64,000 nt of DNA, taken from the NCBI GenBank assembly GCA_016283745.1, contig JAEENM010000147.1, positions 23,079 to 87,078 of the forward strand, in the 5' to 3' direction. Of the stretch, positions 855-45,400 are shown piece after piece (the stretch's first letter is position 1; each line of letters opens with the position of its first letter). The translations under genes and the position numbers were made by a program. The notes under the pieces were generated by a model that worked only from the letters and a program-made list of their open reading frames with translations, searched no databases and had not been told where the DNA came from. Source of the DNA: Bacteroidales bacterium (GTDB lineage Bacteria > Bacteroidota > Bacteroidia > Bacteroidales > P3).

Positions 855-3800
855 TTAGTTGCTTTGGTAATTGAGAATTGAGTTTACGTCCTCGCCTTTC
901 TCGTATCTGTGAATTGCATCAATCAACTCGCGCAGATATTCGTAGTATTCATTTTCGCTCGCTTTGTATATTTCCGCATCTTCGGCTTCTTTCATAGCCT
1001 TGTAAGCTCCGTCGATGTCTTTCTTGTATTCGTCGAAAATGAGGTAGCGGCCATACTCTTTGGAGTTTTCGAGGTAGTCCAGCTTCTCGGCATATTTCAG
1101 CACACCCTCGTTCGCTGCGTTCTCATATTTCTTTAGCAGACGTTTTGTTTCCTCGTATTCTGCTTTGAGGTTGAAGAACTCGTTTTGCAGTTTGCGGTTT
1201 GCCGTGCGTTCGTCGCCGGACTTGACAAGGCGGTTGGCCATTATCATATTTTTCCATTCAAATTCTCTGTCGCCAAAAGCGGTTTCAGCCATCTTTACAA
1301 GTTGGTTAGGTACTTTGAAATAACCACCCAAATATCCGTTAAGGACGTATTCCACTTTTGAGGGGTTGATGTCGATAGCACCTTTCTTGAAATCGTCGCC
1401 GCCCGTAAGTTCGTTGAGCCAACGGCTTGCACCCACGATATTCTTGTCGGCGCTCTTGTAGGCTTTTGTAAATTCGGGGTCGTTCTGGTTGTAGGGTGTA
1501 TCTTTGTAGATTGGCAGACCTACCCAGCTTTTGTTGCTCGAAGCCTCGACAATAGGTTTCACCTGACTTGGTATAAAGGCGTGCCATCCTCCGCCACCTT
1601 CCATAAAGTCGAGGGGCAGGATTTGGCTTCCTTGGCTTATAATCTGTCTTGCCGTTTCGCCTTTGCTGTAATGTTCCTCGCCCGTGATAACACCCGTGGC
1701 AAGTTCGCCCATGCCGTAAATGGCTCTAAACTCTATCGGCAACGGTATTGTTATCCATTGGTCGCCTGCACCAATACAGATGTTGCTTCGGCGCACATAT
1801 TCGGGCAGGTTGTAGTAGGCGTTTTTATCGTCGTCATCGTCATCATCACCGCCCCACAGTGCTTTTGCAATCAGAGGTATTACAGCACCCAACGTAAACA
1901 TTGCAGCTGCACCGGCCGTAAACTTTGCAGGGTGCCGTTTGGCGGCGCGTCCGAAGTTTGTCATACCTTGCAAACCTGCATTCCAGAATACATACAGCAA
2001 TCGGCCTGCACCGCTCAGATACGAGCCAAGTTTGCCCGCTTTTGTCTGTCCTGTGGCTCCGACCATCTTGTCGCCACTGCCTTTTTTGTTGAAATTCACA
2101 CTCACCTCTTTTGCGTCGTAAATGCTTCGTTCCAAACTGCGTCCCATCTCCATTGATGTGATGAAAGCGGCAAATCTCGCACAGTTCTCCACGCTCTCGT
2201 TCAGCAAGTCGAGCTGTTTGCCCAAAGCAGACCATACCTGCCGTGTGGTGCTACCCTGACGTTTCAGCTCACGGGCTATCTCGCGTTTATGTGCCTCGAT
2301 GTCCCTGATGTTGGTATAGCCTGTTTCGCCACCGTTCAACATAAATTGTTTGAACATGTATTCTATTGGCTTGCTGTCGTCCAAAGTGCCTTTGTTCCAT
2401 TTACCGAACAACCAGCGCATGGTGGCAGGGTTGAACTTGCCGAAATTTTTGTGGAAATTCAGCGCATAGTTGCCGCCCTCTTTAACCCACGTCATGCAGT
2501 TGGAGTAAAGCATATCACGGAAGAAGTTGGAGACAACGAAGTTCGGGTCTCTCGTTGTGTAGAAAGCACTCAGCTGGTGATTGACAAACTGCGCCGTTTT
2601 CATTGCACCGCCGATAAAACCGCCCGTCTTAACATCGGGGTTTGTAAGTCCGTTCAACGCCTGCGCCGCCCTCGGGTTGCCGTTTATGGTAAGAACAAAC
2701 GTCTCGCCGTTACGTTTCACCAGCACTTGGTGTTCGTTGCGGTTTTCGGGCAACACCCGGTAGGGGAAATTCTTTGCGTCCATGCCGCTCTTGTATTCCT
2801 TGGGGTGTTGCTCTGCAAGTTGTTGCATCTTTGTTTCAAATTCTTCAACCTTGCGTTCCACCTCTACAGGTGTATCATCGGCCTCGATGTCGGGGAACAC
2901 CGGCACCCAGTCGCCCGTTGCGGCGTCTTTGTGCAACCACAATTTGCTGACACTTACAAGGTCGCTCGGGTGATTTTCAACGAAATTCAAAAACAGCTTT
3001 TTCATCTCGTTGCGGTTGGCCTGCTGTATGGCCTTGTCCGCCATCAGTGCGATGGTGGCTATCGGGTCGTCGGCTTTGCTTGTACGCCCCTCTGCGTGTT
3101 TTATCGGACTGCCGAATGGTCCCTTACGGCTTGTAAGATAGCCGTAAACCTCGTCGCTTGTGGTTTCGTCGAAACCCTGCAACGGTATGTAGTAGTCGAA
3201 TTGGTCGCGTATCTGCTCGTAGCTCTCCTTGCTCAACAGACCGCTGCGGTAAATCTTGGCCAGCGTTACGCCCGTGGCTCGTTTGGTGGCCTCCCACAAA
3301 AGGGTTACGTCGTGCGTTGCCTCGTATTCGTCAACCATCATCTGCGCCATCGCTTCGGCTGTGCGCACGTCAGACTCGCCCGTCAATGCGGTGAGACCTG
3401 CATAGTCTCTGTCGCGGAAATCGTCTATCGTCTTGTTGGTGGCCGGGTATTCCTTTTGATATTCGGCAAAGTCGCGTTCGGCAAACTTTTGGTTGCGTTC
3501 CAACCCGTGTTTCGCCATCATATAGTCGGTAAGTTCCTGCCGTGCGGCCTTGTTACTGCCCGCTATAAGATGTATCGCCTCTAACAGCGGTTTCATATAA
3601 TGTATGAAATAATAATGCTGTTCGGCTGCGTTGGTACTCGACATGCGGTTTTCGGCAAGATAGGCGTTTTCGTTGCCTGCCACTTCCTCAATTCTGAAAT
3701 CCTTGCCTGCGCCGAGTATGGCCTGCATTGCTTTACGCAGTCCCAGCATGCTGTCCTGCATTGCCTCTTGGAACTGATAACCGCCCGTTGCAACCATACG

Positions 3801-6800
3801 CTCGTATTCGTCCCGTGCAATGGCTCTGTCGCGGTCGGTGAAATTGTCACCGTCGTCCTCATCGCGGAAATAAACCTCGCTGTCCTGCTCGTTGCTTTTT
3901 TGCACGGGGTAGGGCTTGGGGGTGCGGCGTTCGTATTCTGCCACATCTTCCGACACTTTGTCGGCGTCTATCGGCTGACCGTCGCTTACAGCGACACGAT
4001 GTCCGGCATTGAAGAGTTTATGCAGGTATCCGTCCAAATCCCTTTCGGGAAAACTAACCACGTACACACCGCCCTTTTCTTTAGTTTTTCTCAAAACGAT
4101 TCCCAGCAGTTTGGCAACTCTTTCTGCGTCCTCGCCATACATGCTGTAAAAACCTTTGCCGTCGGACAGCATCACCAAATCGTTGGGGTATCGCTCTTTG
4201 AGCTTTCGCCATGTTTGGTTTTCGGGAGTGCGCTTGCGTGTCTCCTCTTTCTCCATCTCCTTGCGCAGACGTGCGGCTTCCTCGTTGTTCAGCCCCATAT
4301 CCTCGATAATCTCCTCTTTCTCCTCGGCTTCGGATTTCTCCCACCAGCCACGACGTTCCTCTGCAGGTTGCTCAAAGTCGCCGACTTTCAGTTCCTCTTG
4401 CATAACAACATCTTCGGCTGTGCGCACAAAGTCGCGGAAACGTCCGGGGTATTTCAGTCTTTGGTAGCTGCTCCACAACACATAACGCAGTTCGTTCTCA
4501 CCGATAGAGCCGTAAAACCATCTCTTGATTTTAAGGCCTATCTTGCTCATCATCTCCCAAAACAGGTCTTTGATTTTCTGCCACGACCAAAATTGTTCTG
4601 GAAGTTCATCGGAGTTTCCGCCCAATGTGTCGTATCTCAAATCGCTTTCCATGCCCTCGGCCATTGTGGCAAGGTATTCCTCGGTGGCACGGCGGAAATC
4701 GTAGTTGTATTTGTCGCGGGCAAGTTTGGTTATCGCACGGCGTATCTCAGGCTCGCTGTGATCGTACACGTTGTCGAGGAAATCGTCGAAATGCTTGCCG
4801 AACATCTTACGCAGTCCGTAGTGTCCTGCTCCCTCGTGAAGTATGGTTCTGAGAACATCGCCACGGCTGTGGTGGTTGTCGAGGATAACGACGATTTTGT
4901 TTGTCTTGGGGTCGTACCAGCCTCTTTTTTTGCGGCGTTTTTCCCGTTCTTGTTCGGTAAGCCCTTGTACCTCGTCGATAGTTTCTACCACCTGCACATC
5001 GTCGGTGAGATTGAGTTTCGCCACTGCGTCGGCTATGAATTTGCGTGTGTAACGTCTGGAGCGTTCTATGAAAGCATCGTGTTGTTTCTTGGTGTAGCCG
5101 AAACGCCGTGCGGATGCAAGGCTCTCCTCGTAGGTGCTTAACCAAGGGTCGGGGGGTGTTGTGTCCTCGTCGCGGTAAACAGGGGTGTCGGTTTCTTCCT
5201 CGCTCGCTTCTTCCGCCTCGGTAACTTCTGTAGCAGCGTCCACTTCAGCGTCCACTTCGGCATATTTCTGTTCTTTTTCCGCCATCTCCTTTTTCATCAA
5301 CTCGGAATATTCATCAAATCTCCTATGGGCGGTTTCCAACTCTTTTGTAAACTCAAACGGTTTGCCCTCACGCGCTTTTACCTGCTTTAACGATTCTTGT
5401 GTTTTGGCAATAGACTGTTTTAGCTTTTCAACACGTTCTGCAAATTCTTTGCCACTTACAACATTTTCGAGAATATCCTCCAATCCCACACGGAGCAACG
5501 ACTGTTTAACCGGCGTGTCCTCCATGCCGAGTTCCTCGCAGTCGTATGTCATTTTACGACGTATGGCATTGAACAAATTGCCTTGTTCCGATGCGGTTTC
5601 GTAACTTAATTTTGTGTTGAAAGTAAAATTAAACCCTCCAACATTGATTTTTATAGTAAGTTTCTTTTCTGATGTTCCATAAGGATTTTCACGTATGGAG
5701 TTCTCCGCTTCTTTGACTTTCTTGTTAAACTCTTTGATAAAGTCGGCCAACGCCTCAATGTTGGGATATGTTTTTCCGTCAATAACAATTGCCGGGGATT
5801 GTCCTTTGTGTTGTTCTTTTGATTGTTCTACTTTTTGGCTTGCCTCCTCGGCTTGTTTCAGTCGTCTGTCGTAATTTCGTAACGTGCTTTCAAGCCTCGG
5901 TATTTCATTATGGCAATAAGTTTGGTCGGCTTCCCATTGTTTTTTCTTGTTTTCGTATTTCCGAACATCTTTTTCTGCTTGGTTTTTCAACATCGCATAC
6001 TCCGAACCTGACAATTGAGCCACAGTATCGCCGAAAACATCTTCCTCTTCTTCAATGGCGCGGTTTTCCATGCTGTTTTCAAGCATTTGTTTGCCATTCA
6101 TAATACTATCGGCTATCGCTCCTTTTGTTTTTAGTCGCTGATAAGCTGTTACATCAAGGCTATCCTCAACACCAAAACGGAGCACACGCACGGGTATTCC
6201 CATTTCTTTGTGTAAATTTCCCTGCCTCAAAATTCGGCCATTACGTTGTGTGTAGTCCATTGGACGGTTAGGCGCATCAAGATGTATGAGTGTGTGCAAA
6301 CGTTCCTGTATATTCACGCCAGTACCGAGTGTAAAGGTGCTACCCATTATAACACGCACCTCGCCGCGGTTTACCCTGTCAAATATATCAAGTTTTTTGT
6401 TGACACTCATTCCGCTTTTCATTACAACAATCTGCTCAGCAGGAATACCAGCCTCAATCAGTTTTTGTCGTATGTCCTCATAAAGATTGAAGCCGCTTCG
6501 CTTGTTTTGGTAATTGTCGGCAAATATCGCCACCGTGCCGTTATACGACTTGGTTTGTTCTAAACTATCCAATGTTTGGCGGACTGCCTCGTTGGTCTTG
6601 CTTTGAGGCTCGTCTATTGCATCGGAAACAACGAGGCGAGCATCAACAGCAGCAGCCTTGGCAATGCCGTACATTGTTAATGGGATATGGCGGTTTTTCT
6701 TTTTCTCTTTACCTGTCATATTGTCGAAGCGGTCAAGTTCTGCTTTCACATATTTCATTACCGCACGTAATGATTTTGTCTGTGGCAAATAAATATCCTT

Positions 6801-9800: not shown

Positions 9801-12800
9801 GTCGTTCACGCGCAACCCTGTAACAAAAGGAACATTTGTTATGCACAAATCCACACTACCGTTTTTCACTTGGGTTGCCTCAAATCCCTGCACCTCAACC
9901 TTTGCATCAGGGTATAATAAGGAAAGGATGTTGCCAGTGGTTTGGTCAATTTCAACGGCATGGATGTTGCTTCTTTCGCTCATATCCTGCGGCATAAGCC
10001 CGATGATATTGCCTATTCCGGCACTGCCCTCCAACACATTTCCGCCTCTAAATCCAAGCGCGCGGGCAATATCCCAAAGTGTGTCAATGATATGTGCAGG
10101 GGTGAAAAAAGCACTGTTGCGGCTCATATTGGCCTGTTCGTAGCCTTCATCTCCTAATAAGTCGCGCAGTCGTCCGGCGGTGGTTTTCACACCGTCTATT
10201 TCGGTTAGGTTGCTAAAGGCTTTTCCAAGTCCGCCCCAACCGCTGTATTTACGCAACACAGACATCTGTTCGGGAGTGGCTTTTTGGCCGCTCTCGACAA
10301 GTTGCTGCATTAGTTCAATAGCCTTGATATTAGCCTCTATACGGGCATCAACACCCTTGGGGGCGTAGTCCGTGCCACGCTCCGCATGGTTGTTGTTGAG
10401 GTTGCGTTTGGACTGCTCCGACTCTATGCGTTGCTCGCCCGCAGGTAGTTTAGATACTCCCACGCCTCCGACTCCGTCATTACCAGAATCGTACTTATCA
10501 CGTCCACCCACTCCTCGTCCGTCAGGTCGCTCAGTTTCATTCCCTGTGCTTCCTCCCATCGGTTCATTCTGCTGAGGTTGGTATCCTCCTCGCCCGGTTT
10601 CGCTGGTGCCAGTTTGTACGTTAGTGTTCTCATCGTTTTTGGTTTTTATTTGACTTCCACCAAACAAATCGAGTTGGTTTCCGTTTTGCAAAGATACGGA
10701 TTTTTTTTCGTTTTCTTTGCGGTTTTCGTTTCTTTTTTTCTTAATTTTTTCGGTGGCTTGCTCTGCCTCTTTCTCAACCTCCTGCTCGCGCACTATTGTG
10801 GCGGCTGTTTTTACAAGGTCTTTCGCTCCCTCTTTGTCGAAATTCTCCACATCAAAGGCGCTTACCTCGTCGTAGGGGGTTAGCTCCTTTGCATAACTTT
10901 CCATTTCGGGCAAATCACGAGCACCGTTGTAAAACGATTTAAGGTATGGGCGTACTGCGTCGCCTAACGCCTCTATCATTTTCTTGGCGAAGTCGGCGAA
11001 TTTTCTTGCACCGTGTTTTATTACAAGGTAGCTCATTTCCACACCTGCAGAGAACGCTTCGGGGTCAAACCCCATATTCAGCTGTCCGCCCAGTTTCTTA
11101 CGCAGCATTTCTTTCAGCTCGTCGAAACGTGCCTTGTCCTCATCGTCCACCCAGCTGCTGCCTTTCGGCTGTTCTTCGGTCTGCTCTTGTTTGGGCTGTT
11201 CCAGCTCGGTGGACTGCTCTTTGGTTTCGGGGGACTGACTTTGCTCGGCCTCGTTATTGGTCTCTTTGATGTCCTGCAACGAAAGCGGCTGCTCGTCCGC
11301 CACCTTTTCCTTGTCGTTAAGTGCTTCGGCGAGTTGTTTTGCACTTTCCTCGTCGCGCATCATAAAACCGCCACGGTCTCTGTCGTACCAGCCACGGTTT
11401 TGTTTGGCAATCTCCTTGCCTGCCGCGAGTTCGCCCTTTGTAAGTTCACGGCCAAAGGTTACAAGGTGCATATCCAGCACTTTGTTGCGCTTGGTGGTGT
11501 ATTGTGCAGGGGTGATGGTGTAGTTTTTTTGTTCTGATTCTGTGTTATTTGCAATATTTTTTTGGTCAGTTTCAGAATTTTTCGTATCTTTGCCGGAGAA
11601 ATCCCCGACAGACGGATATTGAGAGGAATTAGGCCTCTCCAGAAGTGCCGCTTGTTGGGGATTGATGTTTTCACTTCTGTATATTTCCTCTTCAAAACCA
11701 GTTATTCCACCGTCTTTTCCGAACACAGTCGAAATTGAGTTAATTTCAAGGACGGGTTTGTTTTTGCCCTGATTAACTTTTTTAACATCTACGCCGACAA
11801 CTACAAATCCTTTTCCTTTTGGAATGATTGTGTATAATCGATAGCCTTTTAGGTTTTGATGGTTTTTGTCATCAAAGTATTTAGTTATCGCAAAGGGTTT
11901 TGTAATTGCGTCTTGTAATTGTTCCCACTCCGATTCTGATAGTTCGTGTTCTGCATCTTTTCCGAAATGGCGAGAAATAGTGCCGTATGAAACCGTGAAT
12001 TTTTCCCCACTCACACCGAGTTCTTTCATAAACTCTGGTGTCTGTGCTACATCAAAGAAAGAACGTTGGTATATTCTACTTGCAAACGTCTTCCCCTTTT
12101 CAGCCAATGTTTTTATGACATCGGTTAGGCTTGGTTTGCTTTTTGCCGTACTCTCCCCGCCCTCGGTGAGTTCGATGGGTTGGGGTGCTGACGATTCCGT
12201 CCGCATATCGGAACGCAATCCAGTTCTGATATACTCTTGGTCTTTATCATCATCCACGTATCTGTCTTGATAAAGATGAGTGATGTAACGGTTGGCAAGC
12301 ATTATAGGGTCGTTGCCCTCGTAGTCGTCAATTTCTTCCGAATATGTGTCATCAGTATCTAACCCCTCCGACACGTATTGTTTCAAATCATCGACAGCCT
12401 TTTGGATGGCCTCTTTGTCATTGTTGGCATAACCGTCTGCCAACGCTTGGCGCAAAGACCTAAAGCGTTCTAACTCCACTTTAGGTTTCAAAAATGCACC
12501 TTCTCCCTCTATTTCTTCGTCGGCCTGCTGAACTTGCGTACCATGTATTTCTTCAACAGTTCCGTCTGGCTCTGTTCCTCGTCCTGCTGGTTCAGCTCCT
12601 GCATCGCTCCCATCAGCAACGCCATCTTCCTGTACGCCCGTTTCTCCTTCTCGTTCTTGTAGGGCATTTCGTTTGCGTTGCTCGTCGGCTGCGTCGAGGG
12701 CTGACTGTTGTTCTTGTTTTGTTCCATAATTTAATATTTCTTCTACTTCTTTGTAAATCTCTTCTTTCGTCTTAATAACGCCGGAAAACATATCATATTG

Positions 12801-15800
12801 TCCTGCCGCGCTATTTTCTGCTTTTTGGTTGTATAGGCTCAGCGCTTTTTTCAACGCGCTCACCTTGTCATCGTTCAGGCGGTCGCCTAACGACAATATT
12901 ATAATGTTGGTGTAGTCCGCCACCGTGTCGCCGGTGTCGAATGGGAAAAGATTTTGCTGACGTGCGAAACCGTTCACTTTCTCGCCAGCCTTTATCCCGC
13001 TCTTGCGGGCTTGGTATGTAAGGTTGATGGCCTCGGCCAGCTCGTTTTCCAACGAATAGTCCTCGCCCAGATGTATGTTGTTGCTTATCTCGGTGAGTGC
13101 CGTTATCACCCTTTCGCGCATCGAGGGGAAAGCTGCAAGTTGTCGTATTGCGTCGGGGTTGCTCTCAAAGGCTTTACCGATGAGCATATTCTCCAATATC
13201 TCGCGGCCTCTTGCGCTTATCTTGTCGCCGTCCATCATCTCGGCAAGCTGCATATCGTTGATAACTCCTGCTCCATGCAACTCGGCCAACGCCTGCGGTG
13301 CGGCTTTGGGGTCGTTGTAGAAATCGCCAATGGTGTCGAAACGGTTTATGGTGTTTATGATACGGCCGAAAGTGGCATCATCCACGGTCTTTCCAAGTTT
13401 CACGGCCTGCTCCGTCCTGCTTTGGCTTTTCTTCTCCTCTGCGTTGAATTTGGCAAAGGTGTCGGTGGTGTAGGGCAGGTTCTCGTCGGCCACAAACACC
13501 ACTCGCGGATGTTGCATTGCCGACACCTGCTCGGCGGTGAAACCGAACTGCTGAGGATATTTTTTCAGATGCTCGATATAGGCTCCGTCGGTGTTCTGCT
13601 GTGCGGCAAGCTCGCCCGCCATTGTGCGGCCGTTACCGCTCAACACCACCCCGTCGTTGCTTACCACGGGAACGTCTTTCAACGCCCTGCTGTCGTAGTT
13701 GTCGGCCATCTGTCGGGTGATGCGTTGCGCCTGCTTGTCGCGCTCGTAGTCGCGGTCGTTCACCGTCTGGCCGTTCTCATCGACAGGAAATCCCTCGTAA
13801 CGAGCAAACTCGTTGTTTGGATCGTGGCTCGGTGTTGCCGCTCCGCTTTCGACAAGCACATAATGGCCTTTAATCGTCTCACCGTTGGCAAGTGCTATCT
13901 CATTTTCAAAACCGTCCACTTTCTCGGCGCTCTCCCATTTCTCACGAATGGCGGGATGTGCCGCGTTTGCTCCCCGTTGTGCCTGCTCCTGACGTTTGGC
14001 CAGTTCCTCGGCCTGCCGTTGTCTCTCCCTCTCCTCCGACGCTTCGATGGCGGCTTTCTCTTTTTCCTGCTGTTCTTTTAGTGCGGCGTTGCGCACCTTG
14101 TCGTGCTGTGCCTTTATCTCGTCCCACAGCTGCTTGTCGGCAAGGGCGGCATCGTAGTCGGCTTTTGCCTTGTCGAGTTTTGCCAAAGCGTTTTCCTCTT
14201 TGCCGTAGGGTGCGTTGTCGTAGTCGGCTTGTGCTTTGTCGAGTTTGGTCTTTGCTGCTGCAAGGGTCTTGGCTCTGTCCTGCACGGTGGCGGCTATCTT
14301 GCCCGTGGGGTTGGCACTGTTCGCTGTTATATCGTTGTAAATCTGCTGTGCTTGGGTGAGCGGCTCGGTGCTTCCCTCTGCTACGGGTGTTGTCTCGGTT
14401 TCCGCCACAGGCTCCGTCTCGGTGGGGGTTGTAGGCTCAACGGGTGTTTCGGGTGTCTGCACATCCTCAATACCTCGCATTGCCTTTACCTGCTCCCACA
14501 TGTCTTTGTTGCGCTGTGCGGCTTGCAGGTCTTGTTCCCACTTGGCGTGTTGTGCCTTGTAGTTGTCTATGTCAGTGCCAATCTGTGGTTCTCCGCTCTG
14601 TGCTGTGGCAAGCGCTTTTTCGGCCTCGTCGAGTTTGTTCTGCACGAATTTGTCGGCTTCCTGCTCGTTAAGTCCTGCTTGGTTGTAAACATAGTCGTAG
14701 GTCTGCTCTGTCGTGGCCTGTTCGTAGGCTGGTATCTGCTTGCCTTTTACCTCACGCATAGGCATTGTAAGGCTCGTTTGTGGCTCGGTTGGAGTGATAG
14801 GTGCTTCGCTCTCCGTTTCGGCCTCTACGGGTGTCTGCGGCGTCTCTGCTGGAGTTTCAGCGGTCGGCTCGGCGGCGGTATCTTCCAGCGGTGCTACGTA
14901 GTAGGACTCTATTGCGTTGTTCAGCTCGCTGACATACTTATGCACCACATCGTCACTGTCGGTTATCAGCTCCACGATGTTGCCGTTTTCATCGGGGGTG
15001 AACTGGCCGTTTTTGTACCGCACCCTGCGCAAAACCACAGCATGGCGCAGTTCTCCGTCCTCGTTGAAAGTTACCTCCATGCCGTTGGTGTAGTCGTCCG
15101 GAACACCCTCGACATAGCCTTGCGGCACGGTGTTTGTCTGCGGTGTTTCTTCCGTTGTCTGCTGTTCGGTTTCCTCGCTTCCGGGTGTCTGCTCCTCTGT
15201 GGTTTCGGTCTGTTGTTCCTCCGACACGGCTTGTGGCTCTGCGGTTTTGCTCTCCTCAACCCTCGCAACGTTGGGGTGTCGCTGGTAGTAGCTCTCTATT
15301 GCCGTAGCATCTGCCACGGCCTGCAAGTCGGAGCGTTGCATCACCTCCTGCTGTGGGTTGCCGTTCTCGTCGATGCCCCCTATGGTTATCTCCTCGCCGT
15401 CCTCGCTAATGGCAAGCACTTTGCCCATTATGCCGCTGGAAAGGGGGATTTCATCGCCTATATTGACGCTTATTTTGCCTTGTGCTTTGTCGATAGCCTG
15501 CTGTACGAAACTGTCCCGTGCATTTTGTATCTGCGCATCCACATCGTCGGCCGACATCACGCTGACAAATCCTCTTATCTCGCCCGAAGATATGGCTTTC
15601 TTTTCGCCGGTGTTCGGGTCGTAGATAGTAACCATCTGGTCGCTGTTCTCGGTATCAACGTCCTTTCCACCCTGCAACATCGTAACATTGCCGTCGATAA
15701 GATAAACGGTTTTGTCCTTGTTGGGGTCGTCCTCGTCTATGATGTTCACCTCTTTAACCATCTGGTCGGCTCGGTGTTGTGTCTTTGCCATCTCCCTGCG

Positions 15801-18194
15801 CATCTGTGTCGCCACAAGGTCGGCTTGGTCTTCGATGGACTGTTGCACACCGTCCCACGCCGCTTTGCGTTCCTCGGCGCTACGGTTGCCCAGTGCTTCG
15901 TCGTTCATCTCCAATGCTATGTCGTGTGCTGTCTGCTCGTCGGAATTATAGCCACGCTCATAAGAGTTTTCTATTTTAATTTTTTGTTCGCTAATTTCTC
16001 CCTTGCGAGCCTTATCAGCTTCAACAATGCCTTTATATTTGTATGTTGCTTTATAGTAATCAAGTATAGCCCGCTTTTGTTCTTTGCTAATATCATGATT
16101 TGCCATCAGTTCGGCTATTCTTGTAGGCACATCCCTATAGTTACCAAAGGCTATTGTGTTACGTATTTCTCCCCACGCATTTTGATTTCCGTTGAAAGCG
16201 GATAATCCTGCCTCGTCAGCATTAACCATTGCGTTTTTAGCTTGATGCTTTGGTGTTCTATAATTAGCCGTTTTGGCAACCGAAAACGCTCCGCCCATCA
16301 CAGCTACGGAGCGCAATGTTTCCAGCATGTTTTCCGTGTTGAAAACGCCCGTCTCGGGGTCGGTGTCTAATGTTTGGTCGCCAACCATTATTGCATTCTC
16401 TACCCCTCCAACTAACTCTTCGGCAAATTCTTCAATAGTTCCATTCCAATTGGTGTTTTTCTCAAAATCTTTTACCACATTAGCCCACTTGGAAGAAGAA
16501 ATATTGTCTATTAAGCCATACACTTTGTCCAATCTCAGATGTTGGCCGAACTTCGACATAGCCCCCTTTTCCAACAACGTTCCACCTGCCTTTAATAATG
16601 GACTAAAATATGCTCCAAACAATTCTGAATCGTTTTGGCTGAAAACATCACCGAACGATTTTAGAAACGCTGTTGTAGGTTTTTCTTTTTCTGTTCTTCC
16701 AGAATATACAAAATTTCCCTCACTGTCTCTGTTTATGTTCATCTGCCCAGCCGTTCGTGAGGCCGTCCCTGCCGCAACTCGCGAAAAACTCGTTGTGGTT
16801 GTTAATATGCCCGCGCCACCCGCATCGGCCAAAACTCTGCCGCCAAATCTCATTGCATTGCCTAACACCGCCTCTTTCCCAAAATGCTTCAACGCTTGTT
16901 TGCTAAATCGCTTTAGTGCGTATCTTGTCAACATACTCTGTGCGCTTCTTCCTAACTTTGAAGCGGGGTTTATAAAAAACTCTAACATAAAAGGAATAGC
17001 ATCTGCCGTGACCTCACCAGCCTTAAACCACCCATTTGCCCCCGAATCAAAATACATCTGGGTAGCCATTTCTATTGCTTTGGCATCAAGCAACATTTTT
17101 TCCTCTTTAGTCAATTCTTCACCTGCGTCTGCCTTATTCAATGTAGCCATCAATTCAGTCGCGTCAATACCCTCCATCATTCCAAAGTCCCATGTTCTCG
17201 GGTCTCCCAACTTATCTAAACCACGTATAAACTTCGCAGCTCCCAAATCATGAACTCCGCCTTTGGTGTTCATTTCTCGCCACATTCTATCAGCATTTGC
17301 TAAAGCATTGTTAGCGGCATTGAGTTGTTTCCATCTTGAATCACCCAGTCTGCCATTTACCGTAATGCTGTTAAATGTGTGGACTAACGGACCGCCACCC
17401 ATTGGACGGTCGCCCCAATTACTACTGATTGCCTCGTTGTCTAATTGGGTTCCTCTCGCGTTTAATTCTTTTCTTACATCATCACGCAAATTGTGCAATT
17501 GGTCTATCAACTGCTTTTCTTTTCTGTTTTCCGTCTCCTCTTTAACAGCCTGCTGAAAGTTTTTTGTCAGTTCGGGCAGGTTTTCCTCGCCGTACATCTC
17601 CACAGCCTTTTGTTTGAGCTGGTTTGCCAATTCCTCGCCCTGCTTTATCGGGTCGCTGGTCGTTGCCTTGGCTGTGTTGTAGGCCTCTTGTATGGCAGCT
17701 TGCACAGGGTCGGTCGGGGTTGTGGGGGTAGTTTTCTTCTGTACGGGTTTCATCCCTCCGCCTTGCACGTAGTCTTTGGCAATCTGCTGTATCATCTCCT
17801 TGGGGTCGGTGGTGCCGAACTGCTGTTGCGCCATCTGACGCAGCTTGTTCTCGTCCCGTGTGCCGAACTTCTTTTCGGCAAGGTCTAACAGCCCTTCCTT
17901 GCTCTGCTGCTCCACCGTCATTCTGGGCTTCGGCTGTGCCGTGGGTTGTGTCGTGGCTGTGGTCTGCTTTGCTGTCGGCTGTGGGGTAGGGGCGTTTAGT
18001 TTGTCCCCGATGATGTCGGACGTAAATTGTTCAAACGCCGGAAGGTCGTAGTTGTCCTCTATTAAGTTGTCGTACAGTTCACGACGCAAGTTATCATCTG
18101 CCATGTCGGATGTGAACTTGTCGTATGCCGGTAAGTCGTAGTTATCTTTTAAAAGGTTGTTATACAACTCTTTGCGTTTGCGTTCGTCTGTCAT
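855..18194 (-). CDS. Giant polyvalent protein (5,779 aa) with a DarB-like N6A-methyltransferase + SF2 helicase core and multiple accessory modules
   Basis: Single uninterrupted ORF in the track. Recognisable motifs are listed as sub-features. All long plus-strand ORFs across it are low-complexity antisense shadows. It starts with a tandem ~30-aa repeat (LYNNLLKDNYDLPAYDKFTSD / LYDNLIEDNYDLPAFEQFTSD). Confidence 0.9.
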   Translation of the reverse strand: MTDERKRKELYNNLLKDNYDLPAYDKFTSDMADDNLRRELYDNLIEDNYDLPAFEQFTSDIIGDKLNAPTPQPTAKQTTATTQPTAQPKPRMTVEQQSKEGLLDLAEKKFGTRDENKLRQMAQQQFGTTDPKEMIQQIAKDYVQGGGMKPVQKKTTPTTPTDPVQAAIQEAYNTAKATTSDPIKQGEELANQLKQKAVEMYGEENLPELTKNFQQAVKEETENRKEKQLIDQLHNLRDDVRKELNARGTQLDNEAISSNWGDRPMGGGPLVHTFNSITVNGRLGDSRWKQLNAANNALANADRMWREMNTKGGVHDLGAAKFIRGLDKLGDPRTWDFGMMEGIDATELMATLNKADAGEELTKEEKMLLDAKAIEMATQMYFDSGANGWFKAGEVTADAIPFMLEFFINPASKLGRSAQSMLTRYALKRFSKQALKHFGKEAVLGNAMRFGGRVLADAGGAGILTTTTSFSRVAAGTASRTAGQMNINRDSEGNFVYSGRTEKEKPTTAFLKSFGDVFSQNDSELFGAYFSPLLKAGGTLLEKGAMSKFGQHLRLDKVYGLIDNISSSKWANVVKDFEKNTNWNGTIEEFAEELVGGVENAIMVGDQTLDTDPETGVFNTENMLETLRSVAVMGGAFSVAKTANYRTPKHQAKNAMVNADEAGLSAFNGNQNAWGEIRNTIAFGNYRDVPTRIAELMANHDISKEQKRAILDYYKATYKYKGIVEADKARKGEISEQKIKIENSYERGYNSDEQTAHDIALEMNDEALGNRSAEERKAAWDGVQQSIEDQADLVATQMRREMAKTQHRADQMVKEVNIIDEDDPNKDKTVYLIDGNVTMLQGGKDVDTENSDQMVTIYDPNTGEKKAISSGEIRGFVSVMSADDVDAQIQNARDSFVQQAIDKAQGKISVNIGDEIPLSSGIMGKVLAISEDGEEITIGGIDENGNPQQEVMQRSDLQAVADATAIESYYQRHPNVARVEESKTAEPQAVSEEQQTETTEEQTPGSEETEQQTTEETPQTNTVPQGYVEGVPDDYTNGMEVTFNEDGELRHAVVLRRVRYKNGQFTPDENGNIVELITDSDDVVHKYVSELNNAIESYYVAPLEDTAAEPTAETPAETPQTPVEAETESEAPITPTEPQTSLTMPMREVKGKQIPAYEQATTEQTYDYVYNQAGLNEQEADKFVQNKLDEAEKALATAQSGEPQIGTDIDNYKAQHAKWEQDLQAAQRNKDMWEQVKAMRGIEDVQTPETPVEPTTPTETEPVAETETTPVAEGSTEPLTQAQQIYNDITANSANPTGKIAATVQDRAKTLAAAKTKLDKAQADYDNAPYGKEENALAKLDKAKADYDAALADKQLWDEIKAQHDKVRNAALKEQQEKEKAAIEASEERERQRQAEELAKRQEQAQRGANAAHPAIREKWESAEKVDGFENEIALANGETIKGHYVLVESGAATPSHDPNNEFARYEGFPVDENGQTVNDRDYERDKQAQRITRQMADNYDSRALKDVPVVSNDGVVLSGNGRTMAGELAAQQNTDGAYIEHLKKYPQQFGFTAEQVSAMQHPRVVFVADENLPYTTDTFAKFNAEEKKSQSRTEQAVKLGKTVDDATFGRIINTINRFDTIGDFYNDPKAAPQALAELHGAGVINDMQLAEMMDGDKISARGREILENMLIGKAFESNPDAIRQLAAFPSMRERVITALTEISNNIHLGEDYSLENELAEAINLTYQARKSGIKAGEKVNGFARQQNLFPFDTGDTVADYTNIIILSLGDRLNDDKVSALKKALSLYNQKAENSAAGQYDMFSGVIKTKEEIYKEVEEILNYGTKQEQQSALDAADEQRKRNALQEREGETGVQEDGVADGSDAGAEPAGRGTEPDGTVEEIHGTQVQQADEEIEGEGAFLKPKVELERFRSLRQALADGYANNDKEAIQKAVDDLKQYVSEGLDTDDTYSEEIDDYEGNDPIMLANRYITHLYQDRYVDDDKDQEYIRTGLRSDMRTESSAPQPIELTEGGESTAKSKPSLTDVIKTLAEKGKTFASRIYQRSFFDVAQTPEFMKELGVSGEKFTVSYGTISRHFGKDAEHELSESEWEQLQDAITKPFAITKYFDDKNHQNLKGYRLYTIIPKGKGFVVVGVDVKKVNQGKNKPVLEINSISTVFGKDGGITGFEEEIYRSENINPQQAALLERPNSSQYPSVGDFSGKDTKNSETDQKNIANNTESEQKNYTITPAQYTTKRNKVLDMHLVTFGRELTKGELAAGKEIAKQNRGWYDRDRGGFMMRDEESAKQLAEALNDKEKVADEQPLSLQDIKETNNEAEQSQSPETKEQSTELEQPKQEQTEEQPKGSSWVDDEDKARFDELKEMLRKKLGGQLNMGFDPEAFSAGVEMSYLVIKHGARKFADFAKKMIEALGDAVRPYLKSFYNGARDLPEMESYAKELTPYDEVSAFDVENFDKEGAKDLVKTAATIVREQEVEKEAEQATEKIKKKRNENRKENEKKSVSLQNGNQLDLFGGSQIKTKNDENTNVQTGTSETGRGGYQPQQNEPMGGSTGNETERPDGRGVGGRDKYDSGNDGVGGVGVSKLPAGEQRIESEQSKRNLNNNHAERGTDYAPKGVDARIEANIKAIELMQQLVESGQKATPEQMSVLRKYSGWGGLGKAFSNLTEIDGVKTTAGRLRDLLGDEGYEQANMSRNSAFFTPAHIIDTLWDIARALGFRGGNVLEGSAGIGNIIGLMPQDMSERSNIHAVEIDQTTGNILSLLYPDAKVEVQGFEATQVKNGSVDLCITNVPFVTGLRVNDTTGDKDLSKKFHDIHDFCIAKNVRKLRDGGIGIFITSSGTLDNSQKLRDWLVSEGNADVVGAFRLNNETFGGTAATSDIIVIRKRVNGKKSAHAIDVLPITGERVAEYDTGETKKVKGQEIRVVKNLSMDYNKYFVQHPEMMGGEMAFGFERGDNYRPTSKGLYPKRGVNQNERLQSFVQSLQGFDDEAAAPVSIEANNNKVYESLGDDVKEGSMVVSNGQLCVARYGQAVPLNLNKNKVKGHTKEECFNSYKKIKDALSAVLEYQTTHEENDGLKPLLDELNNAYDNFVNVYGRLHKNMAIPFLKNDVDFANILALEKYNERIDVKTGERIAEYGKTDIFSKRVVEKEKTPSPTNVKDGITASIYMHGRIDLPWIAEKITQSTGKPISEKEVREEIINSGLGFENPATTQMEVSYEYLSGNVREKLQQANEANGVEGQEGKYSANIKALENVIPMNIPAHLIDFSIGSSWITPELYEEYIKERTDIDVKCVNVDGTWFMRKPHWRNEEKNRAMGVVSEKLNKTILGTELIEAAMTNRAITVSETRKTWDGKRETITDSDATSACANKVDEIRQDFKDWAKAKMLSEPAFSEQIEQIYNEKFNNFVPKSIPEEYVPKHFGGAATIVDNKPFSLRPHQGKAAVRATTQPLLLAHEVGTGKTYTLITAAMEMRRLGTARKPMIVVQNSTVGQFVESAKKLYPNAKVLTIDDKEHDEEGRKNFYAKIKYNDWDMIVVPQSVFERIPDSEERQMAFVADKIEEKEKALELLQDEDIDGSSWIVKQAEREINDLQAELTELTAATSKKKKERDEKKDAIIRQNAEVKAFEMLDRMTDNVENFDDMGIDALLVDEAHEYKHLGFATAMQRGVKGIDPSYSKKAQGVYLKTQAVLEKNNGRNVVFATGTPISNTAAEIWTFMRYLMPADTMKDYGIYYFDDFVRNFGNLTQMLEFTTSGKFKENNRFAGYVNLPELVRIWSGVADTVLTKEAGGVNDKIPEMEGGKAKDIYLPQTKSLRAVMKYVKAELDRFDNMTGKEKKKNRHIPLTMYGIAKAAAVDARLVVSDAIDEPQSKTNEAVRQTLDSLEQTKSYNGTVAIFADNYQNKRSGFNLYEDIRQKLIEAGIPAEQIVVMKSGMSVNKKLDIFDRVNRGEVRVIMGSTFTLGTGVNIQERLHTLIHLDAPNRPMDYTQRNGRILRQGNLHKEMGIPVRVLRFGVEDSLDVTAYQRLKTKGAIADSIMNGKQMLENSMENRAIEEEEDVFGDTVAQLSGSEYAMLKNQAEKDVRKYENKKKQWEADQTYCHNEIPRLESTLRNYDRRLKQAEEASQKVEQSKEQHKGQSPAIVIDGKTYPNIEALADFIKEFNKKVKEAENSIRENPYGTSEKKLTIKINVGGFNFTFNTKLSYETASEQGNLFNAIRRKMTYDCEELGMEDTPVKQSLLRVGLEDILENVVSGKEFAERVEKLKQSIAKTQESLKQVKAREGKPFEFTKELETAHRRFDEYSELMKKEMAEKEQKYAEVDAEVDAATEVTEAEEASEEETDTPVYRDEDTTPPDPWLSTYEESLASARRFGYTKKQHDAFIERSRRYTRKFIADAVAKLNLTDDVQVVETIDEVQGLTEQEREKRRKKRGWYDPKTNKIVVILDNHHSRGDVLRTILHEGAGHYGLRKMFGKHFDDFLDNVYDHSEPEIRRAITKLARDKYNYDFRRATEEYLATMAEGMESDLRYDTLGGNSDELPEQFWSWQKIKDLFWEMMSKIGLKIKRWFYGSIGENELRYVLWSSYQRLKYPGRFRDFVRTAEDVVMQEELKVGDFEQPAEERRGWWEKSEAEEKEEIIEDMGLNNEEAARLRKEMEKEETRKRTPENQTWRKLKERYPNDLVMLSDGKGFYSMYGEDAERVAKLLGIVLRKTKEKGGVYVVSFPERDLDGYLHKLFNAGHRVAVSDGQPIDADKVSEDVAEYERRTPKPYPVQKSNEQDSEVYFRDEDDGDNFTDRDRAIARDEYERMVATGGYQFQEAMQDSMLGLRKAMQAILGAGKDFRIEEVAGNENAYLAENRMSSTNAAEQHYYFIHYMKPLLEAIHLIAGSNKAARQELTDYMMAKHGLERNQKFAERDFAEYQKEYPATNKTIDDFRDRDYAGLTALTGESDVRTAEAMAQMMVDEYEATHDVTLLWEATKRATGVTLAKIYRSGLLSKESYEQIRDQFDYYIPLQGFDETTSDEVYGYLTSRKGPFGSPIKHAEGRTSKADDPIATIALMADKAIQQANRNEMKKLFLNFVENHPSDLVSVSKLWLHKDAATGDWVPVFPDIEADDTPVEVERKVEEFETKMQQLAEQHPKEYKSGMDAKNFPYRVLPENRNEHQVLVKRNGETFVLTINGNPRAAQALNGLTNPDVKTGGFIGGAMKTAQFVNHQLSAFYTTRDPNFVVSNFFRDMLYSNCMTWVKEGGNYALNFHKNFGKFNPATMRWLFGKWNKGTLDDSKPIEYMFKQFMLNGGETGYTNIRDIEAHKREIARELKRQGSTTRQVWSALGKQLDLLNESVENCARFAAFITSMEMGRSLERSIYDAKEVSVNFNKKGSGDKMVGATGQTKAGKLGSYLSGAGRLLYVFWNAGLQGMTNFGRAAKRHPAKFTAGAAAMFTLGAVIPLIAKALWGGDDDDDDDKNAYYNLPEYVRRSNICIGAGDQWITIPLPIEFRAIYGMGELATGVITGEEHYSKGETARQIISQGSQILPLDFMEGGGGWHAFIPSQVKPIVEASSNKSWVGLPIYKDTPYNQNDPEFTKAYKSADKNIVGASRWLNELTGGDDFKKGAIDINPSKVEYVLNGYLGGYFKVPNQLVKMAETAFGDREFEWKNMIMANRLVKSGDERTANRKLQNEFFNLKAEYEETKRLLKKYENAANEGVLKYAEKLDYLENSKEYGRYLIFDEYKKDIDGAYKAMKEAEDAEIYKASENEYYEYLRELIDAIHRYEKGEDVNSILNYQSN
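1827..1913 (-). other. Hydrophobic (TM-like) helix followed by a poly-Asp tract in the C-terminal region of the giant ORF
   Basis: AAAMFTLGAVIPLIAKALWGG-DDDDDDD-KNAYYNLPEY. The D7 tract is encoded at 1827-1847. Confidence 0.6.
3960..4230 (-). other. MutS domain-I-like module inside the giant ORF
   Basis: WRKLKERYPNDLVMLSDGKGFYSMYGEDAERVAKLLGIVL...FPERDLDGYLHKLFNAGHRVAVSD aligns by eye with the E. coli MutS N-terminus ([39 protein letters not shown]...[23 protein letters not shown]). Confidence 0.55.
4821..4838 (-). other. HExxxH segment (TILHEGAGHYGL), a possible metallopeptidase-like module inside the giant ORF
   Basis: HEGAGH read directly from the translation. Spacing is H-E-x-x-x-H, not the canonical HExxH, so the catalytic assignment is uncertain. 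Confidence 0.3.
6234..7835 (-). other. SF2 (SNF2/DEAH-type) helicase core inside the giant ORF
   Basis: Motif I AHEVGTGKTYT (GTGKT = 7821-7835), motif II LLVDEAHEYK (DEAH = 7248-7259), motif III ATGTPISNT, motif V/VI GSTFTLGTGVN ... QRNGRILRQGN (6234-6248). Confidence 0.9.
9825..10034 (-). other. N6-adenine DNA methyltransferase catalytic core inside the giant ORF
   Basis: Motif I NVLEGSAGIGNIIG (about 10008-10034) and motif IV DLCITNVPF (NVPF = 9825-9836). Preceded by YSGWGGLGKAF and FFTPAHI, typical of large plasmid/phage methylase-helicase proteins. Confidence 0.85.
11700..12080 (-). other. Possible MuF_C / PBECR-like (barnase-EndoU-RelE-like) module inside the giant ORF
   Basis: ELGVSGEKFTVSYGTISRHFGKDAEHELSESEWEQLQDAITKPFAITKY...GFVVVGVDV...LEINSISTVFGK. 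The layout (H-x-x-K..H, W..L...I..P, then a beta-rich tail ending T-x-F-x-K) recalls the C-terminal modules of MuF-type polyvalent proteins. Weak call, from memory only. Confidence 0.3.
13600..13900 (-). other. ParB/sulfiredoxin-fold-like domain inside the giant ORF (approximate bounds)
   Basis: Translation reads ...GHYVLVESGAATPSHDPNN...VPVVSNDGVVLSGNGRTMAGELAA. The h-h-S-G-N-G-R-T segment resembles the ParB-fold GxxR box. Assigned by eye only. Confidence 0.4.
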
Positions 18195-18204
18195 CTTTAT
18201 GTTA

Positions 18205-19254
18205 TTATTTGAATGAATAACCTATTTTCTTTGTAGCGGGTTGTTGTGTGTATGCCTGCTTCCCCGTGCCCTTGCCGTTTCCGCTGGCGTTGCTTCCGCT
18301 TGGCGTCTTGGTGGTTGTGGTTACCTTTTTTCTACCTCTTGCGTCGGTTTCCTCTTTGACAGTAGTGTAACCATCCTCTTTATTTTTGTAATACTCCGCC
18401 TGTGCGCTGTTTTTATCTGCGGCCGCATTTTGATTGCCTATATATGCCATCGCCTTCGCGTGGTTGTCATCAAACCCCATTGCGAGGTACTTCCCTCTCG
18501 TTACCTCATTTTCGTATTGCTGATGATACTTTGCGGCTAATTCGTAATTCTTTTGCTCTGCCGCCTCTCTCGCCCTTGCAAGTGCCTCGTTTGCTTTAAT
18601 TCGGCTGTCCCGTAATGCGTTGTCGTTCTCGGCTTTTTGCAGTGCCTTTTGCTCGTTGAGGGCGATGGACTGCTCTTTGTATTCTTGGCTGGCGAGTGCA
18701 TTTTTGCGGTTAAGCACCTTGTCGTAATAGTTCATCAGCAGGGCGCGGTCTTTGTCGTGGGCGGCTTTCAGTTTCTCGGCACGTTCACGGCTCTTGTCGC
18801 TCAAAGTGTATTTCGGTGCTGTGTAGGGTACATAATGGTTTGCCGTGTCGATGTCGTTCATCACACGGGCGAAATCTGTAATACCGTCTAACGTGGCTTG
18901 TAAGGCCTGCAGTCGTTCCTCTTTCCTGCGTTTGCCTTTCTGCTGGTCGAGTTCGGCCTGAATGTCGGCAAGTACCTTGTCGTACCCTGCCGCCTGTTTG
19001 GCGTATTTGTCGCTTATCTCCTGCCGACGTTTGAGGTAGGTGTCGGTGGTGGTAGGTGTAGGTGTTACAACGGTGTTTTTTTTGGTGTCGGTGGTGCCGT
19101 CGGTGTCGTTGGTATTTTCGTTGTTGCTCTCGTCCTCAATAGGAGTAAGTTCACTTACATAGTGGCTGCCGGGTGTACCGTTTTGTGGTACAGTCTGCTG
19201 GTTTTTCTTTTCTTCTTCGTCGTAGTATGACGAATTTTTGTTTGTTCCGGGCAT
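18205..19254 (-). CDS. Hypothetical phage protein, T/N-rich N-terminus and long K/E/A/Q-rich coiled-coil-like body (349 aa)
   Basis: Track ORF, 10 nt upstream of the giant ORF start and co-oriented. No catalytic motif recognised. Confidence 0.7.
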   Translation of the reverse strand: MPGTNKNSSYYDEEEKKNQQTVPQNGTPGSHYVSELTPIEDESNNENTNDTDGTTDTKKNTVVTPTPTTTDTYLKRRQEISDKYAKQAAGYDKVLADIQAELDQQKGKRRKEERLQALQATLDGITDFARVMNDIDTANHYVPYTAPKYTLSDKSRERAEKLKAAHDKDRALLMNYYDKVLNRKNALASQEYKEQSIALNEQKALQKAENDNALRDSRIKANEALARAREAAEQKNYELAAKYHQQYENEVTRGKYLAMGFDDNHAKAMAYIGNQNAAADKNSAQAEYYKNKEDGYTTVKEETDARGRKKVTTTTKTPSGSNASGNGKGTGKQAYTQQPATKKIGYSFK

Positions 19255-19273
19255 AAATACTCCTTTCTATTGA

Positions 19274-19999: not shown

Positions 20000-20095
20000 T
20001 TCGTTTTTTGTTTAAATTTCGCAACTTATAATCGGTTTGCAAAAATATACAACTAATTTTGCACCGTTAATTTATCTTGCGAAATAATAATAATA
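20000..20095. promoter_or_regulatory. Divergent promoter region (two back-to-back TAnnTTTG boxes)
   Basis: Minus-strand TATTTTTG (plus caaaaata, 20040-20047) faces the 241-aa gene. Plus-strand TAATTTTG (20054-20061) lies 35 nt before the ATG at 20096. Confidence 0.45.
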
Positions 20096-20491
20096 ATGGC
20101 TAAAAAAGGACGTAAACCGAACGATGGACGTGGCAAAACGGGTGGCCGACAAAAAGGCACTCCCAACAAAGACCATCCGTTGAAAACTATACTGCGCCAA
20201 CACTCACAAAACTACTTCGATGTGTGTATTAGAGCCGAAGATGCCGAAGGGAAAAAAGATGAATGGAAAGCCGAACACGCTGGTTGTGTGTTCTCGCAAT
20301 TCGAGCTGGATTTAATGGATATGAAGCCCTCTGACCGCTCAAAGGCGGAGTTGGAGTTACTTACCTATCACACACCGAAAATGTCCGCTATCTCGGCTGA
20401 TATGGCCGTTAAGGATGCCAATTCTACATTTACCAATCGTCTTACTCGTCTTGCGAGCGGAGAGGATGTCTCTGCCCCGGATGAGGAATAA
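20096..20491 (+). CDS. Hypothetical phage protein with a strongly basic N-terminus (131 aa)
   Basis: Track ORF, MAKKGRKPNDGRGKTGGRQKGTPNK.... A small-terminase-like or DNA-binding role is possible but unsupported. Confidence 0.6.
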   Translation: MAKKGRKPNDGRGKTGGRQKGTPNKDHPLKTILRQHSQNYFDVCIRAEDAEGKKDEWKAEHAGCVFSQFELDLMDMKPSDRSKAELELLTYHTPKMSAISADMAVKDANSTFTNRLTRLASGEDVSAPDEE

Positions 20492-26356: not shown

Positions 26357-26376
26357 GCTGTGCGGTTTTAGACGTG

Positions 26377-45385: not shown

Positions 45386-45400
45386 TGGACAATTGCAGTT

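Follow-up and report, generated by a model that had tools for sequence, protein, structure and literature searches.

Phage P1 packages DarB, a head protein of 2,255 amino acids (aa); each virion contains about 40 copies, and the protein inhibits both EcoK and EcoB (PMC9024508). It consists of an EcoKI/TaqI-like adenine methylase, with the motifs TP, LExSAGxG and NVPF, followed by an SNF2 helicase. Proteins in which many unrelated effector domains are encoded beside phage packaging genes were described as polyvalent proteins by Iyer, Burroughs, Anand, de Souza and Aravind in 2017, and their survey reports the methyltransferase (MTase)-SNF2 dyad, DdrB-ParB, an HEXXXH-type metallopeptidase (MPTase), MutS-I and LPD domains (PMC5512222). 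Such a protein, referred to here as the giant, is encoded by a single 5,779-aa gene in a stretch of 64,000 nucleotides (nt) from a Bacteroidales bacterium (the window; assembly GCA_016283745.1, contig JAEENM010000147.1, positions 23,079 to 87,078). The giant is probably a polyvalent protein that a temperate short-tailed Bacteroidales phage, with a P22-type portal and an SU10-type capsid, packs into its head and injects, and its packaging and injection most likely serve ejection and the blunting of host restriction, because homologues (JC1 gp69 and phi24B gp47) have been found in purified virions. The kind of protein is already known, and this copy is one more intact, well-preserved and slightly unusual example.

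Both homologues belong to phages of other hosts. Bcep22-like and related podophages encode DarB-like/PLxRFG giants (PHROG 10089) such as JC1 gp69 (4,515 aa) and Pavtok gp27 (5,007 aa), the latter called the longest known phage protein in a 2021 paper and shorter than the giant. In CsCl-purified virions, JC1 gp69 had the second-highest score in mass spectrometry, with 51 unique peptides (PMC9144972). These podophage proteins resemble the giant in a methylase-helicase core (~28-31% identity over ~1,500 aa), an LPD38-type tail and a place in the morphogenesis module. They differ in the host phylum and in often carrying a lytic transglycosylase, none of which was found in the giant, and no relative of its N-terminal 1,400 aa was detectable in them. 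The second homologue, gp47 of phi24B, is a 933W-type LPD38 protein of 2,811 aa, about half the length of the giant, which is abundant in virions, invisible in cryo-electron microscopy and proposed as an ejection protein (bioRxiv 10.64898/2026.04.10.717836). Homology with the giant covers a tail region of ~800 aa (22-23% identity, E about 1e-34); its reported domains are LPD5, LPD1, LPD38 and MuF-C, and neither a methylase-helicase nor ParB or MutS-I is among those listed.

The gene and its family

The gene was described as one uninterrupted open reading frame (ORF) by an earlier model-made reading of the letters alone (the sequence-only reading), and it does run from an ATG to a sole terminal stop. 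No internal stop occurs across 17,340 nt, an openness with a chance of ~1e-120 if codon usage is uniform. That reading also raised the worry of an assembly chimera. This is very unlikely because contigs from three other metagenomic sequencing runs match the window at 100% over the parts they cover (1.9-8.4 kb within window 11718-20142, comprising the 5' part of the giant gene and its upstream neighbours) and because GCA_016648615.1 contains a 5,779-aa gene call of the same length after an identical 349-aa neighbour gene. Decay into a pseudogene of a dead prophage has precedents among relatives, one of which carries a TAG in the peptidase motif (locus L004, discussed below) while others are broken giants in degraded prophages (L005, L091). 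Here, however, the catalytic motifs are intact, and the ORF is open through the entire 10-kb upstream flank in about 45 of the 50 related tail loci that have this flank, which makes an artefact or a decayed gene hardly credible.

The closest deposited relatives are gp55 of BKO1-TP3 (PQ571269; 5,553 aa, labelled 'DarB-like antirestriction') and gp3 of BS-TP4 (PQ571277; 5,391 aa, 'hypothetical', L003:1511-17686), two temperate Bacteroides phages isolated in 2025 (PMC12694917). Each is encoded directly upstream of the portal gene, as is the giant, and all three proteins have in common an N-terminal module (N-module), a ddrB-ParB domain, a module at aa 2225-2522 of the giant, an HExxxH module and a C-terminal LPD38 tail. 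The identity between the giant and gp55 is about 21% over the first 2,300 aa (likewise for gp3), 59% in the core and 50% in the tail. An InPase domain occupies the position of the giant's weak MuF_C match in both relatives, the MutS-I segment is absent from both, and gp3 has an N6_Mtase and a Strawberry-notch helicase where the giant has a DarB-type cassette. Between gp3 and gp55 themselves, 78% of residues are identical over the N-terminal 2,500 aa and 62% over the C-terminal 1,250 aa; their centres differ, which looks like a cassette swap between two closely related phages. With the N-module, the HExxxH module followed by the tail, and the position before the portal gene, the giant belongs to the gp55 type, and its distinguishing features are modest: the rare MutS-I, the weak MuF_C in the place taken by InPase in relatives, and an N-terminal third that has diverged.

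Relatives had to be sought at the protein level, as megablast of window 1-24000 against phage genomes gave no match. One genome per prokaryotic species was scanned; a single tail sequence as query found no relatives, whereas an alignment of tails recovered 187 loci, nearly all in Bacteroidales. An exhaustive search with the N-module returned 530 representative clusters. Almost all of them are giants, and the matching segment invariably lies at ~aa 200-1000. Among the best 150 of these clusters, 113 have at least 3,000 aa, 47 at least 5,000 aa and 20 at least 5,779 aa, with the longest at 6,356 aa, so that the very large size emphasised by the sequence-only reading is real but not exceptional. 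Family members, from P22-portal-type temperate Bacteroidales phages, span 3,500-6,356 aa. Several from public metagenomes (P0190, P0167, P0144 and others) have 6,330-6,356 aa, above Pavtok gp27.

Modules were counted in 49 giants from the genome scan and in 93 representative giants of at least 3,900 aa. The tail is present in 49/49 and 76/93, respectively, its match ending a median of 15.5 residues before the C-terminus in the representatives, and the HExxxH module in 48/49 and 85/93. A DarB-type methylase-helicase dyad occurs in only 21/49 and 24/93, a non-orthologous Strawberry-notch-type dyad in 12/49 and 9/93, and neither type in 16/49 and 60/93; MutS-I is confined to 2/49 and 3/93. Judged by these counts, the family is built from a constant frame, made up of the N-module, the HExxxH module and the LPD38 tail, together with exchangeable middle cassettes. 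In the giant, the cassettes are the DdrB-type ParB domain, the weak MuF_C match, the DarB-type methylase with its SNF2 helicase and the rare MutS-I. A constant frame with swappable cassettes was not found stated in the accessible part of the polyvalent-protein survey (PMC5512222). Such an arrangement suggests a naturally occurring means by which very large cargo proteins are packaged and injected. Both the domain map and the census of the family are useful, and they leave the current picture of polyvalent proteins unchanged.

These counts bear on what the giant fundamentally is. The sequence-only reading had presented it as an expanded DarB core, and it could accordingly be a DarB orthologue, a methylase-helicase core with added accessory domains whose main and ancestral job is to defeat type I restriction. 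Both enzymes are directly homologous to those of P1 DarB and share its motifs, the whole protein matches phrog_10089, the best PHROG and named 'DarB-like antirestriction' (as well as phrog_14770), and gp55 is annotated likewise. The dyad is, however, replaced or missing in most giants while the frame is nearly universal, and gp3 and gp55 keep similar ends around different centres. The DarB-type unit is therefore a swappable insert and not the core, the notion of an expanded core is not supported, and we regard descent as a DarB orthologue as unlikely.

Modules along the chain

Besides the dyad, the sequence-only reading had picked out a tandem N-terminal repeat, a ParB-fold-like box (LSGNGRTMA), a possible MuF_C/PBECR-like module, an HExxxH segment, a MutS-domain-I-like module and a tail of ~1,000 aa with a hydrophobic helix and a tract of seven aspartates (D7), leaving the first ~1,400 aa unassigned. 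Nearly all of these motifs are backed by profile or homology searches (Table 1), and the unassigned N-terminal stretch is now resolved in part as the N-module with its LPD14 domain. A search of NCBIfam added no further domains. Sequence searches of the Protein Data Bank (PDB) gave no match for the first 2,640 aa, generic helicase matches only for the core, and MutS as the only match for the last 1,780 aa. Pro/Thr/Gly-rich linkers are numerous along the protein.

In the N-terminal half, the tandem repeat was confirmed by direct comparison of its copies; BLAST of the giant against itself reported no internal repeats and missed this short one too. The repeat region has a weak match to phrog_24532 (E=0.0012). 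The N-module has no annotated relative besides LPD14 and no solved structural relative. The ParB domain is 34% identical to aa 107-182 of P1 DdrB, and the SGNGRTM signature is found in both, which together with the profile match bears out the ParB assignment. The segment that follows is probably a MuF_C domain (PF18819), with a score of 22.2 bits under the Pfam gathering cut-off of 27.6; for PBECR, the other half of the original proposal, no match was found in the giant. The module at aa 2225-2522 is 47-50% identical to BS-TP4 gp3 and ~51% to BKO1-TP3 gp55, and is found in 34 of the 49 giants of the genome set.

Table 1. Features of the giant protein and of the surrounding window. Residue positions (aa) are those of the giant; window positions are those of the 64,000-nt stretch.
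Feature	Residues (aa)	Window position	Strand	Basis or remark
Giant polyvalent protein gene		855..18194	(-)	5,779 aa + stop; single uninterrupted ORF
N-terminal tandem repeat	7-31 and 37-61	18012..18176	(-)	17/25 residues identical, direct comparison
Conserved N-module	~250-1010	15165..17447	(-)	contains LPD14
LPD14 domain	521-653	16236-16634	(-)	Pfam E=1.2e-16
DdrB-type ParB/Srx domain	~1437-1563	13506..13886	(-)	Pfam ddrB-ParB E=8.7e-12
MuF_C domain (probable only)	~2078-2162	11709..11963	(-)	Pfam E=1.6e-4
Conserved module	2225-2522	10629..11522	(-)	no Pfam match
Gly/Asn-rich linker	~2522-2600			sequence
DarB-type N6-adenine DNA methyltransferase	~2618-2883	9546..10343	(-)	homology to P1 DarB
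SWI2/SNF2-type SF2 helicase	~3430-4010	6165..7907	(-)	Pfam SNF2-rel_dom, ResIII, Helicase_C
Zincin-like metallopeptidase module, HExxxH subtype	4359-4607	4374..5120	(-)	
MutS domain I insertion	~4656-4740	3975..4229	(-)	Pfam MutS_I E=8e-15
Helical tail module, ~990 aa	4790-5779	858..3827	(-)	contains LPD38
Hydrophobic helix, 6-residue spacer, D7 tract	5425-5443 (helix), 5450-5456 (D7)	1827..1922	(-)	
LPD38 domain	5458-5650	1245-1823	(-)	Pfam E=7e-40
P22-type portal gene, N-terminal part		1..786	(-)	runs off window; starts 68 nt downstream of giant
349-aa low-complexity/coiled-coil protein		18205..19254	(-)	10 nt upstream of giant gene
241-aa protein, two N-terminal TM-like segments		19274..19999	(-)	hydropathy peaks aa 7-25, 40-58
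1,074-aa ORF		23519-26743	(-)	phrog_32516 (function unknown), E=1.6e-196
Radical SAM protein		27995-28924	(-)	prophage early region
Small Methyltransf_11-like protein		28937-29470	(-)	prophage early region
572-aa C5 cytosine methylase		31560-33278	(-)	prophage early region
Type I R-M operon HsdM, HsdS, HsdR		42821-56118	(+)	host part
YhcG/PDC-S02 nuclease		45401-46486	(+)	defence candidate nested in R-M operon
980-aa NACHT/STAND NTPase		47777-50719	(+)	nested in R-M operon; no PADLOC match
PDC-M29A/B pair		50970-52732	(+)	defence candidates nested in R-M operon
SF2, superfamily 2; TM, transmembrane; R-M, restriction-modification.

The methylase-helicase cassette follows the order of P1 DarB. 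Generic Pfam methylase models barely detect the methylase (Eco57I, E=7e-4), and its identification as an N6A-methyltransferase is instead upheld by direct homology to aa 47-274 of P1 DarB (30% identity, E=3e-22 in blastp), with which the TP motif (FFTP/YYTP), motif I (LEGSAGIG/LEPSAGTG) and the unusual motif IV (NVPF) align. The helicase has two stretches homologous to P1 DarB and is a full SF2 helicase as proposed, with RPHQ at residue 3432, GTGKT at 3454, DEAH at 3646, TGT at 3698 and QRNGRILR at 3983, so that motifs I, II, III and VI are intact.

The HExxxH module is part of the frame, and its residues H4453, E4454 and H4458 are invariant in relatives, as is EEY 4505-4507 (E4505/E4506). In the AlphaFold2 (AF2) model, a helix (30-54) and strands (61-64, 86-89 and 94-98) precede two helices (105-140 and 161-174) that carry HEGAGH and EEY, respectively, and the modelled module has zincin topology. 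Anthrax lethal factor and MATCAP ranked top in a Foldseek search with this model, at non-significant values (E=0.6-3), and the module profile had no match in the PDB. An HEXXXH MPTase subtype related to anthrax lethal factor is explicitly reported in polyvalent proteins (PMC5512222).

Between the peptidase and the tail lies the MutS domain I insertion, which matches Taq MutS (PDB 1ewq, E=1e-9) in addition to the Pfam profile. Its mismatch-wedge Phe is retained, and Ser stands where MutS has the Glu that contacts the mismatch (FYE vs FYS). Of the parts of MutS, domain I alone is present; connector, core, clamp and ATPase domains are lacking. As only this domain is present and the Glu of the motif is replaced, the segment is, judged by its make-up, a borrowed DNA-binding domain and not a MutS. 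To our knowledge, MutS domain I is otherwise found almost only in MutS. A stand-alone 79-aa MutS domain I protein is encoded in the small-gene region of the same prophage (window 22629-22868, plus strand; Pfam E=1.2e-8) and is 34% identical to the giant's segment, so that the phage holds two copies. In the polyvalent-protein survey, ~80% of MutS-I domains co-occur with ArdC-N, for which the giant has no match (PMC5512222).

The tail, confirmed in the extent first described and now known to contain LPD38, yielded 320 homologues in a homology search and is homologous in sequence to giants of Stx-converting 933W/phi24B-type, Ralstonia, Vibrio and Burkholderia phages. Its hydrophobic helix is the only 19-residue segment in the giant with a Kyte-Doolittle value above 1.3 (1.86), and the poly-Asp run that follows is kept in the family consensus. 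An AF2 model from 32 sequences is largely helical (predicted local distance difference test, pLDDT, 76.7; predicted template-modelling score, pTM, 0.72). Foldseek found nothing below E=0.48 in the PDB for this model; among predicted viral structures, there are 76 matches at E≤1e-3 with TM-scores up to 0.73. The top-ranked of these are mostly the final segments of long proteins, several of them named polyvalent proteins, and the cargo at their N-terminal side varies from lytic transglycosylase to RelA/SpoT and type I methylase.

One check suggested at the outset was whether the domains occur as separate genes in related phages. Locus L004 seemed to offer the tail as an autonomous gene, in that a gene of 4,807 aa precedes a distinct LPD38 gene of 1,063 aa. 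This candidate was rejected, as the split is a single in-frame TAG just after HExxxH (L004:9600-10200, ERZ13632044 contig; …HEVVAHHGLRELFG*KFDNF…, the asterisk marking the stop), where relatives have Glu. The TAG is present on 13 contigs and may be a nonsense mutation or else a stop that is suppressed or recoded. The remaining short tail homologues that were examined either come from broken giants in degraded prophages or are truncated by contig ends. No firm example of a tail encoded by a gene of its own was thus found, and no claim that the domains exist as separate genes is made.

Proposed roles in packaging, injection and anti-restriction

The giant has the hallmarks of a polyvalent protein, with LPD14, ddrB-ParB, N6A-MTase, SNF2 helicase, HExxxH MPTase, MutS_I and LPD38 in one chain and a gene among late and packaging genes, and the sequence-only reading was right in seeing a very large member of this class with a DarB-like unit. 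It had also placed the gene between membrane or coiled-coil proteins and the portal. This is confirmed by hydropathy, composition and a portal match (Pfam P22_portal, E=3.9e-13; phrog_156 portal, E=3e-28), and the operon runs from the TM protein over the coiled-coil protein and the giant to the portal, with gaps of 10 and 68 nt before and after the giant. The portal is 64% identical to those of both BKO1-TP3 and BS-TP4. The 241-aa TM protein, 49% identical to BKO1-TP3 gp57, is a candidate co-ejected membrane protein; the coiled-coil protein, whose positional counterpart is BKO1-TP3 gp56 and which has no family match in Pfam or PHROG searches, is a candidate for packaging together with the giant. 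The adjacency to the portal, the synteny with the two cultured phages and the homologues in purified virions all support the proposed association with the virion. In P1, too, darB adjoins the portal gene, prt, although the two are divergently transcribed (L090:10469-19021).

Polyvalent proteins of conjugative elements can carry MutS-I and methylase-helicase modules as well (PMC5512222), and polyvalent proteins are also frequent beside type IV secretion genes; the giant might thus belong to a conjugative element and not to a phage. The portal immediately downstream, the SU10-type capsid protein gene a few kb beyond the portal in related loci, the phage genes upstream (YqaJ, NinB and a repressor type) and the synteny of the locus with two cultured phages speak against this, and no match to ArdC-N, a relaxase or a type IV secretion system was found; the probability of a conjugative origin is practically negligible.

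A protein of a phage could also stay in the producing cell, where the giant would act unpackaged, for example as a centre of replication or modification in which progeny DNA is methylated before packaging, or in superinfection exclusion by the prophage. The prophage does encode several other methyltransferases, and placement in the virion is known from homologues, not from this protein. Nevertheless, the gene is tightly coupled to morphogenesis genes beside the portal, the homologues were found in purified virions from two unrelated host systems, and an intracellular enzyme that costs about 27% of a ~65-kb genome (the size is that of BKO1-TP3) would be hard to explain. A purely intracellular role is therefore very improbable.

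For the packaged and injected protein, the following course of events can be proposed. The constant frame, with its hydrophobic helix and poly-Asp run, would direct incorporation into the head and exit via portal and tail in a largely unfolded state, acting jointly with the two small upstream proteins. A protein this large is expected to be unfolded, at least in part, as it leaves the head (PMC8402733), which fits the many Pro/Thr/Gly-rich linkers of the giant. The frame would then bring a string of effector cassettes, separated by these linkers, into the cell. There, the DarB-type methylase may ride the SNF2 translocase along the incoming DNA and mask or modify it in cis against type I restriction, as proposed for P1 DarB, while the DdrB-type ParB domain and MutS domain I would bind DNA or nucleotides and keep the giant attached to the incoming genome. 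Cleavage of the polyprotein by the HExxxH peptidase may take place either prior to delivery or afterwards; for comparison, P1 DdrB is processed before it is packaged, and in the N4 virion RNA polymerase (vRNAP), encapsidation requires the MPTase region (PMC5512222). The giants occupy about a quarter of the genome in widespread temperate gut Bacteroidales phages and may explain how phages pass restriction barriers between Bacteroides strains, which is relevant to gut phage-host dynamics and phage engineering.

Several points weigh against packaging, injection and an anti-restriction role. The giant and its Bacteroides homologues are known from sequence alone, and the gene is not discussed in the publication on BKO1-TP3 (PMC12694917). 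The packaging of P1 DarB depends on Hdf, DarA, DdrA, DdrB and Ulx (PMC9024508), and of these, the window holds no homologue of DarA, Hdf, DdrA or Ulx, and only a DdrB-like domain, fused in cis. The N-terminal 30-residue capsid-targeting sequence of P1 DarB is not conserved, as homology starts at DarB residue 47, and the DarB-like module sits 2,600 residues into the giant. As targeting signal and helper proteins are not conserved, the giant holds a DarB-like module and is not a strict DarB orthologue; it unites DarB and DdrB modules in one polypeptide of 2.5 times the length of DarB, and P1 is a myovirus whereas the giant's phage is of the P22-portal type. The roles given to the tail and the N-module are drawn from conservation and position, because neither has a solved structural relative, the MuF_C match lies below threshold, and the resemblance of the HExxxH module to the lethal factor fold is not significant (E about 0.6). 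Finally, most giants have no recognised methylase-helicase, and anti-restriction therefore cannot be the common function of the family.

A more far-reaching idea, tentative and on present evidence doubtful, is that the frame forms a one-polypeptide ejectosome that replaces or complements the three ejection proteins of P22-/T7-type phages. If so, the frame would insert into the Bacteroides envelope and thread exchangeable cassettes into the cell ahead of or with the DNA, and the peptidase would free them once they are delivered. In that case, the giant gene would serve as a natural, modular platform for protein delivery, with the junction between peptidase and tail, the MutS-I site in this copy, as a permissive site for cargo.

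Prophage and host surroundings

Opposite the giant gene, on the plus strand of window 2289-16205, there are antisense ORFs of 700, 513, 431 and 375 aa, none of which has a match to Pfam or any other family. The AT skew of the plus strand is -0.19 to -0.46 in this region, and the antisense ORFs are probably shadow ORFs because the coding strand is strongly purine-rich.

Further upstream lie early genes of a temperate phage, namely an HTH_3 repressor-like gene, a radical SAM protein, a C5 methylase, NinB and a YqaJ exonuclease. The radical SAM, Methyltransf_11-like and C5 methylase proteins could provide extra DNA-modification functions beside the giant's methylase. The 1,074-aa ORF of the prophage gave a faint HRDC hint only and no match in PADLOC. 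No tRNA genes were found in the window.

Beyond ~39 kb, the window consists of host DNA and includes a protein sorted by the type IX secretion system (T9SS), an indication of a host in the Bacteroidota. The type I R-M island that the sequence-only reading had considered a plausible target of the giant is present in this part, but it has no bearing on the function of the giant, since phage DNA made here would already be host-modified. Nested within its operon are further defence candidates, namely the YhcG/PDC-S02 nuclease, the NACHT/STAND NTPase and the PDC-M29A/B pair.

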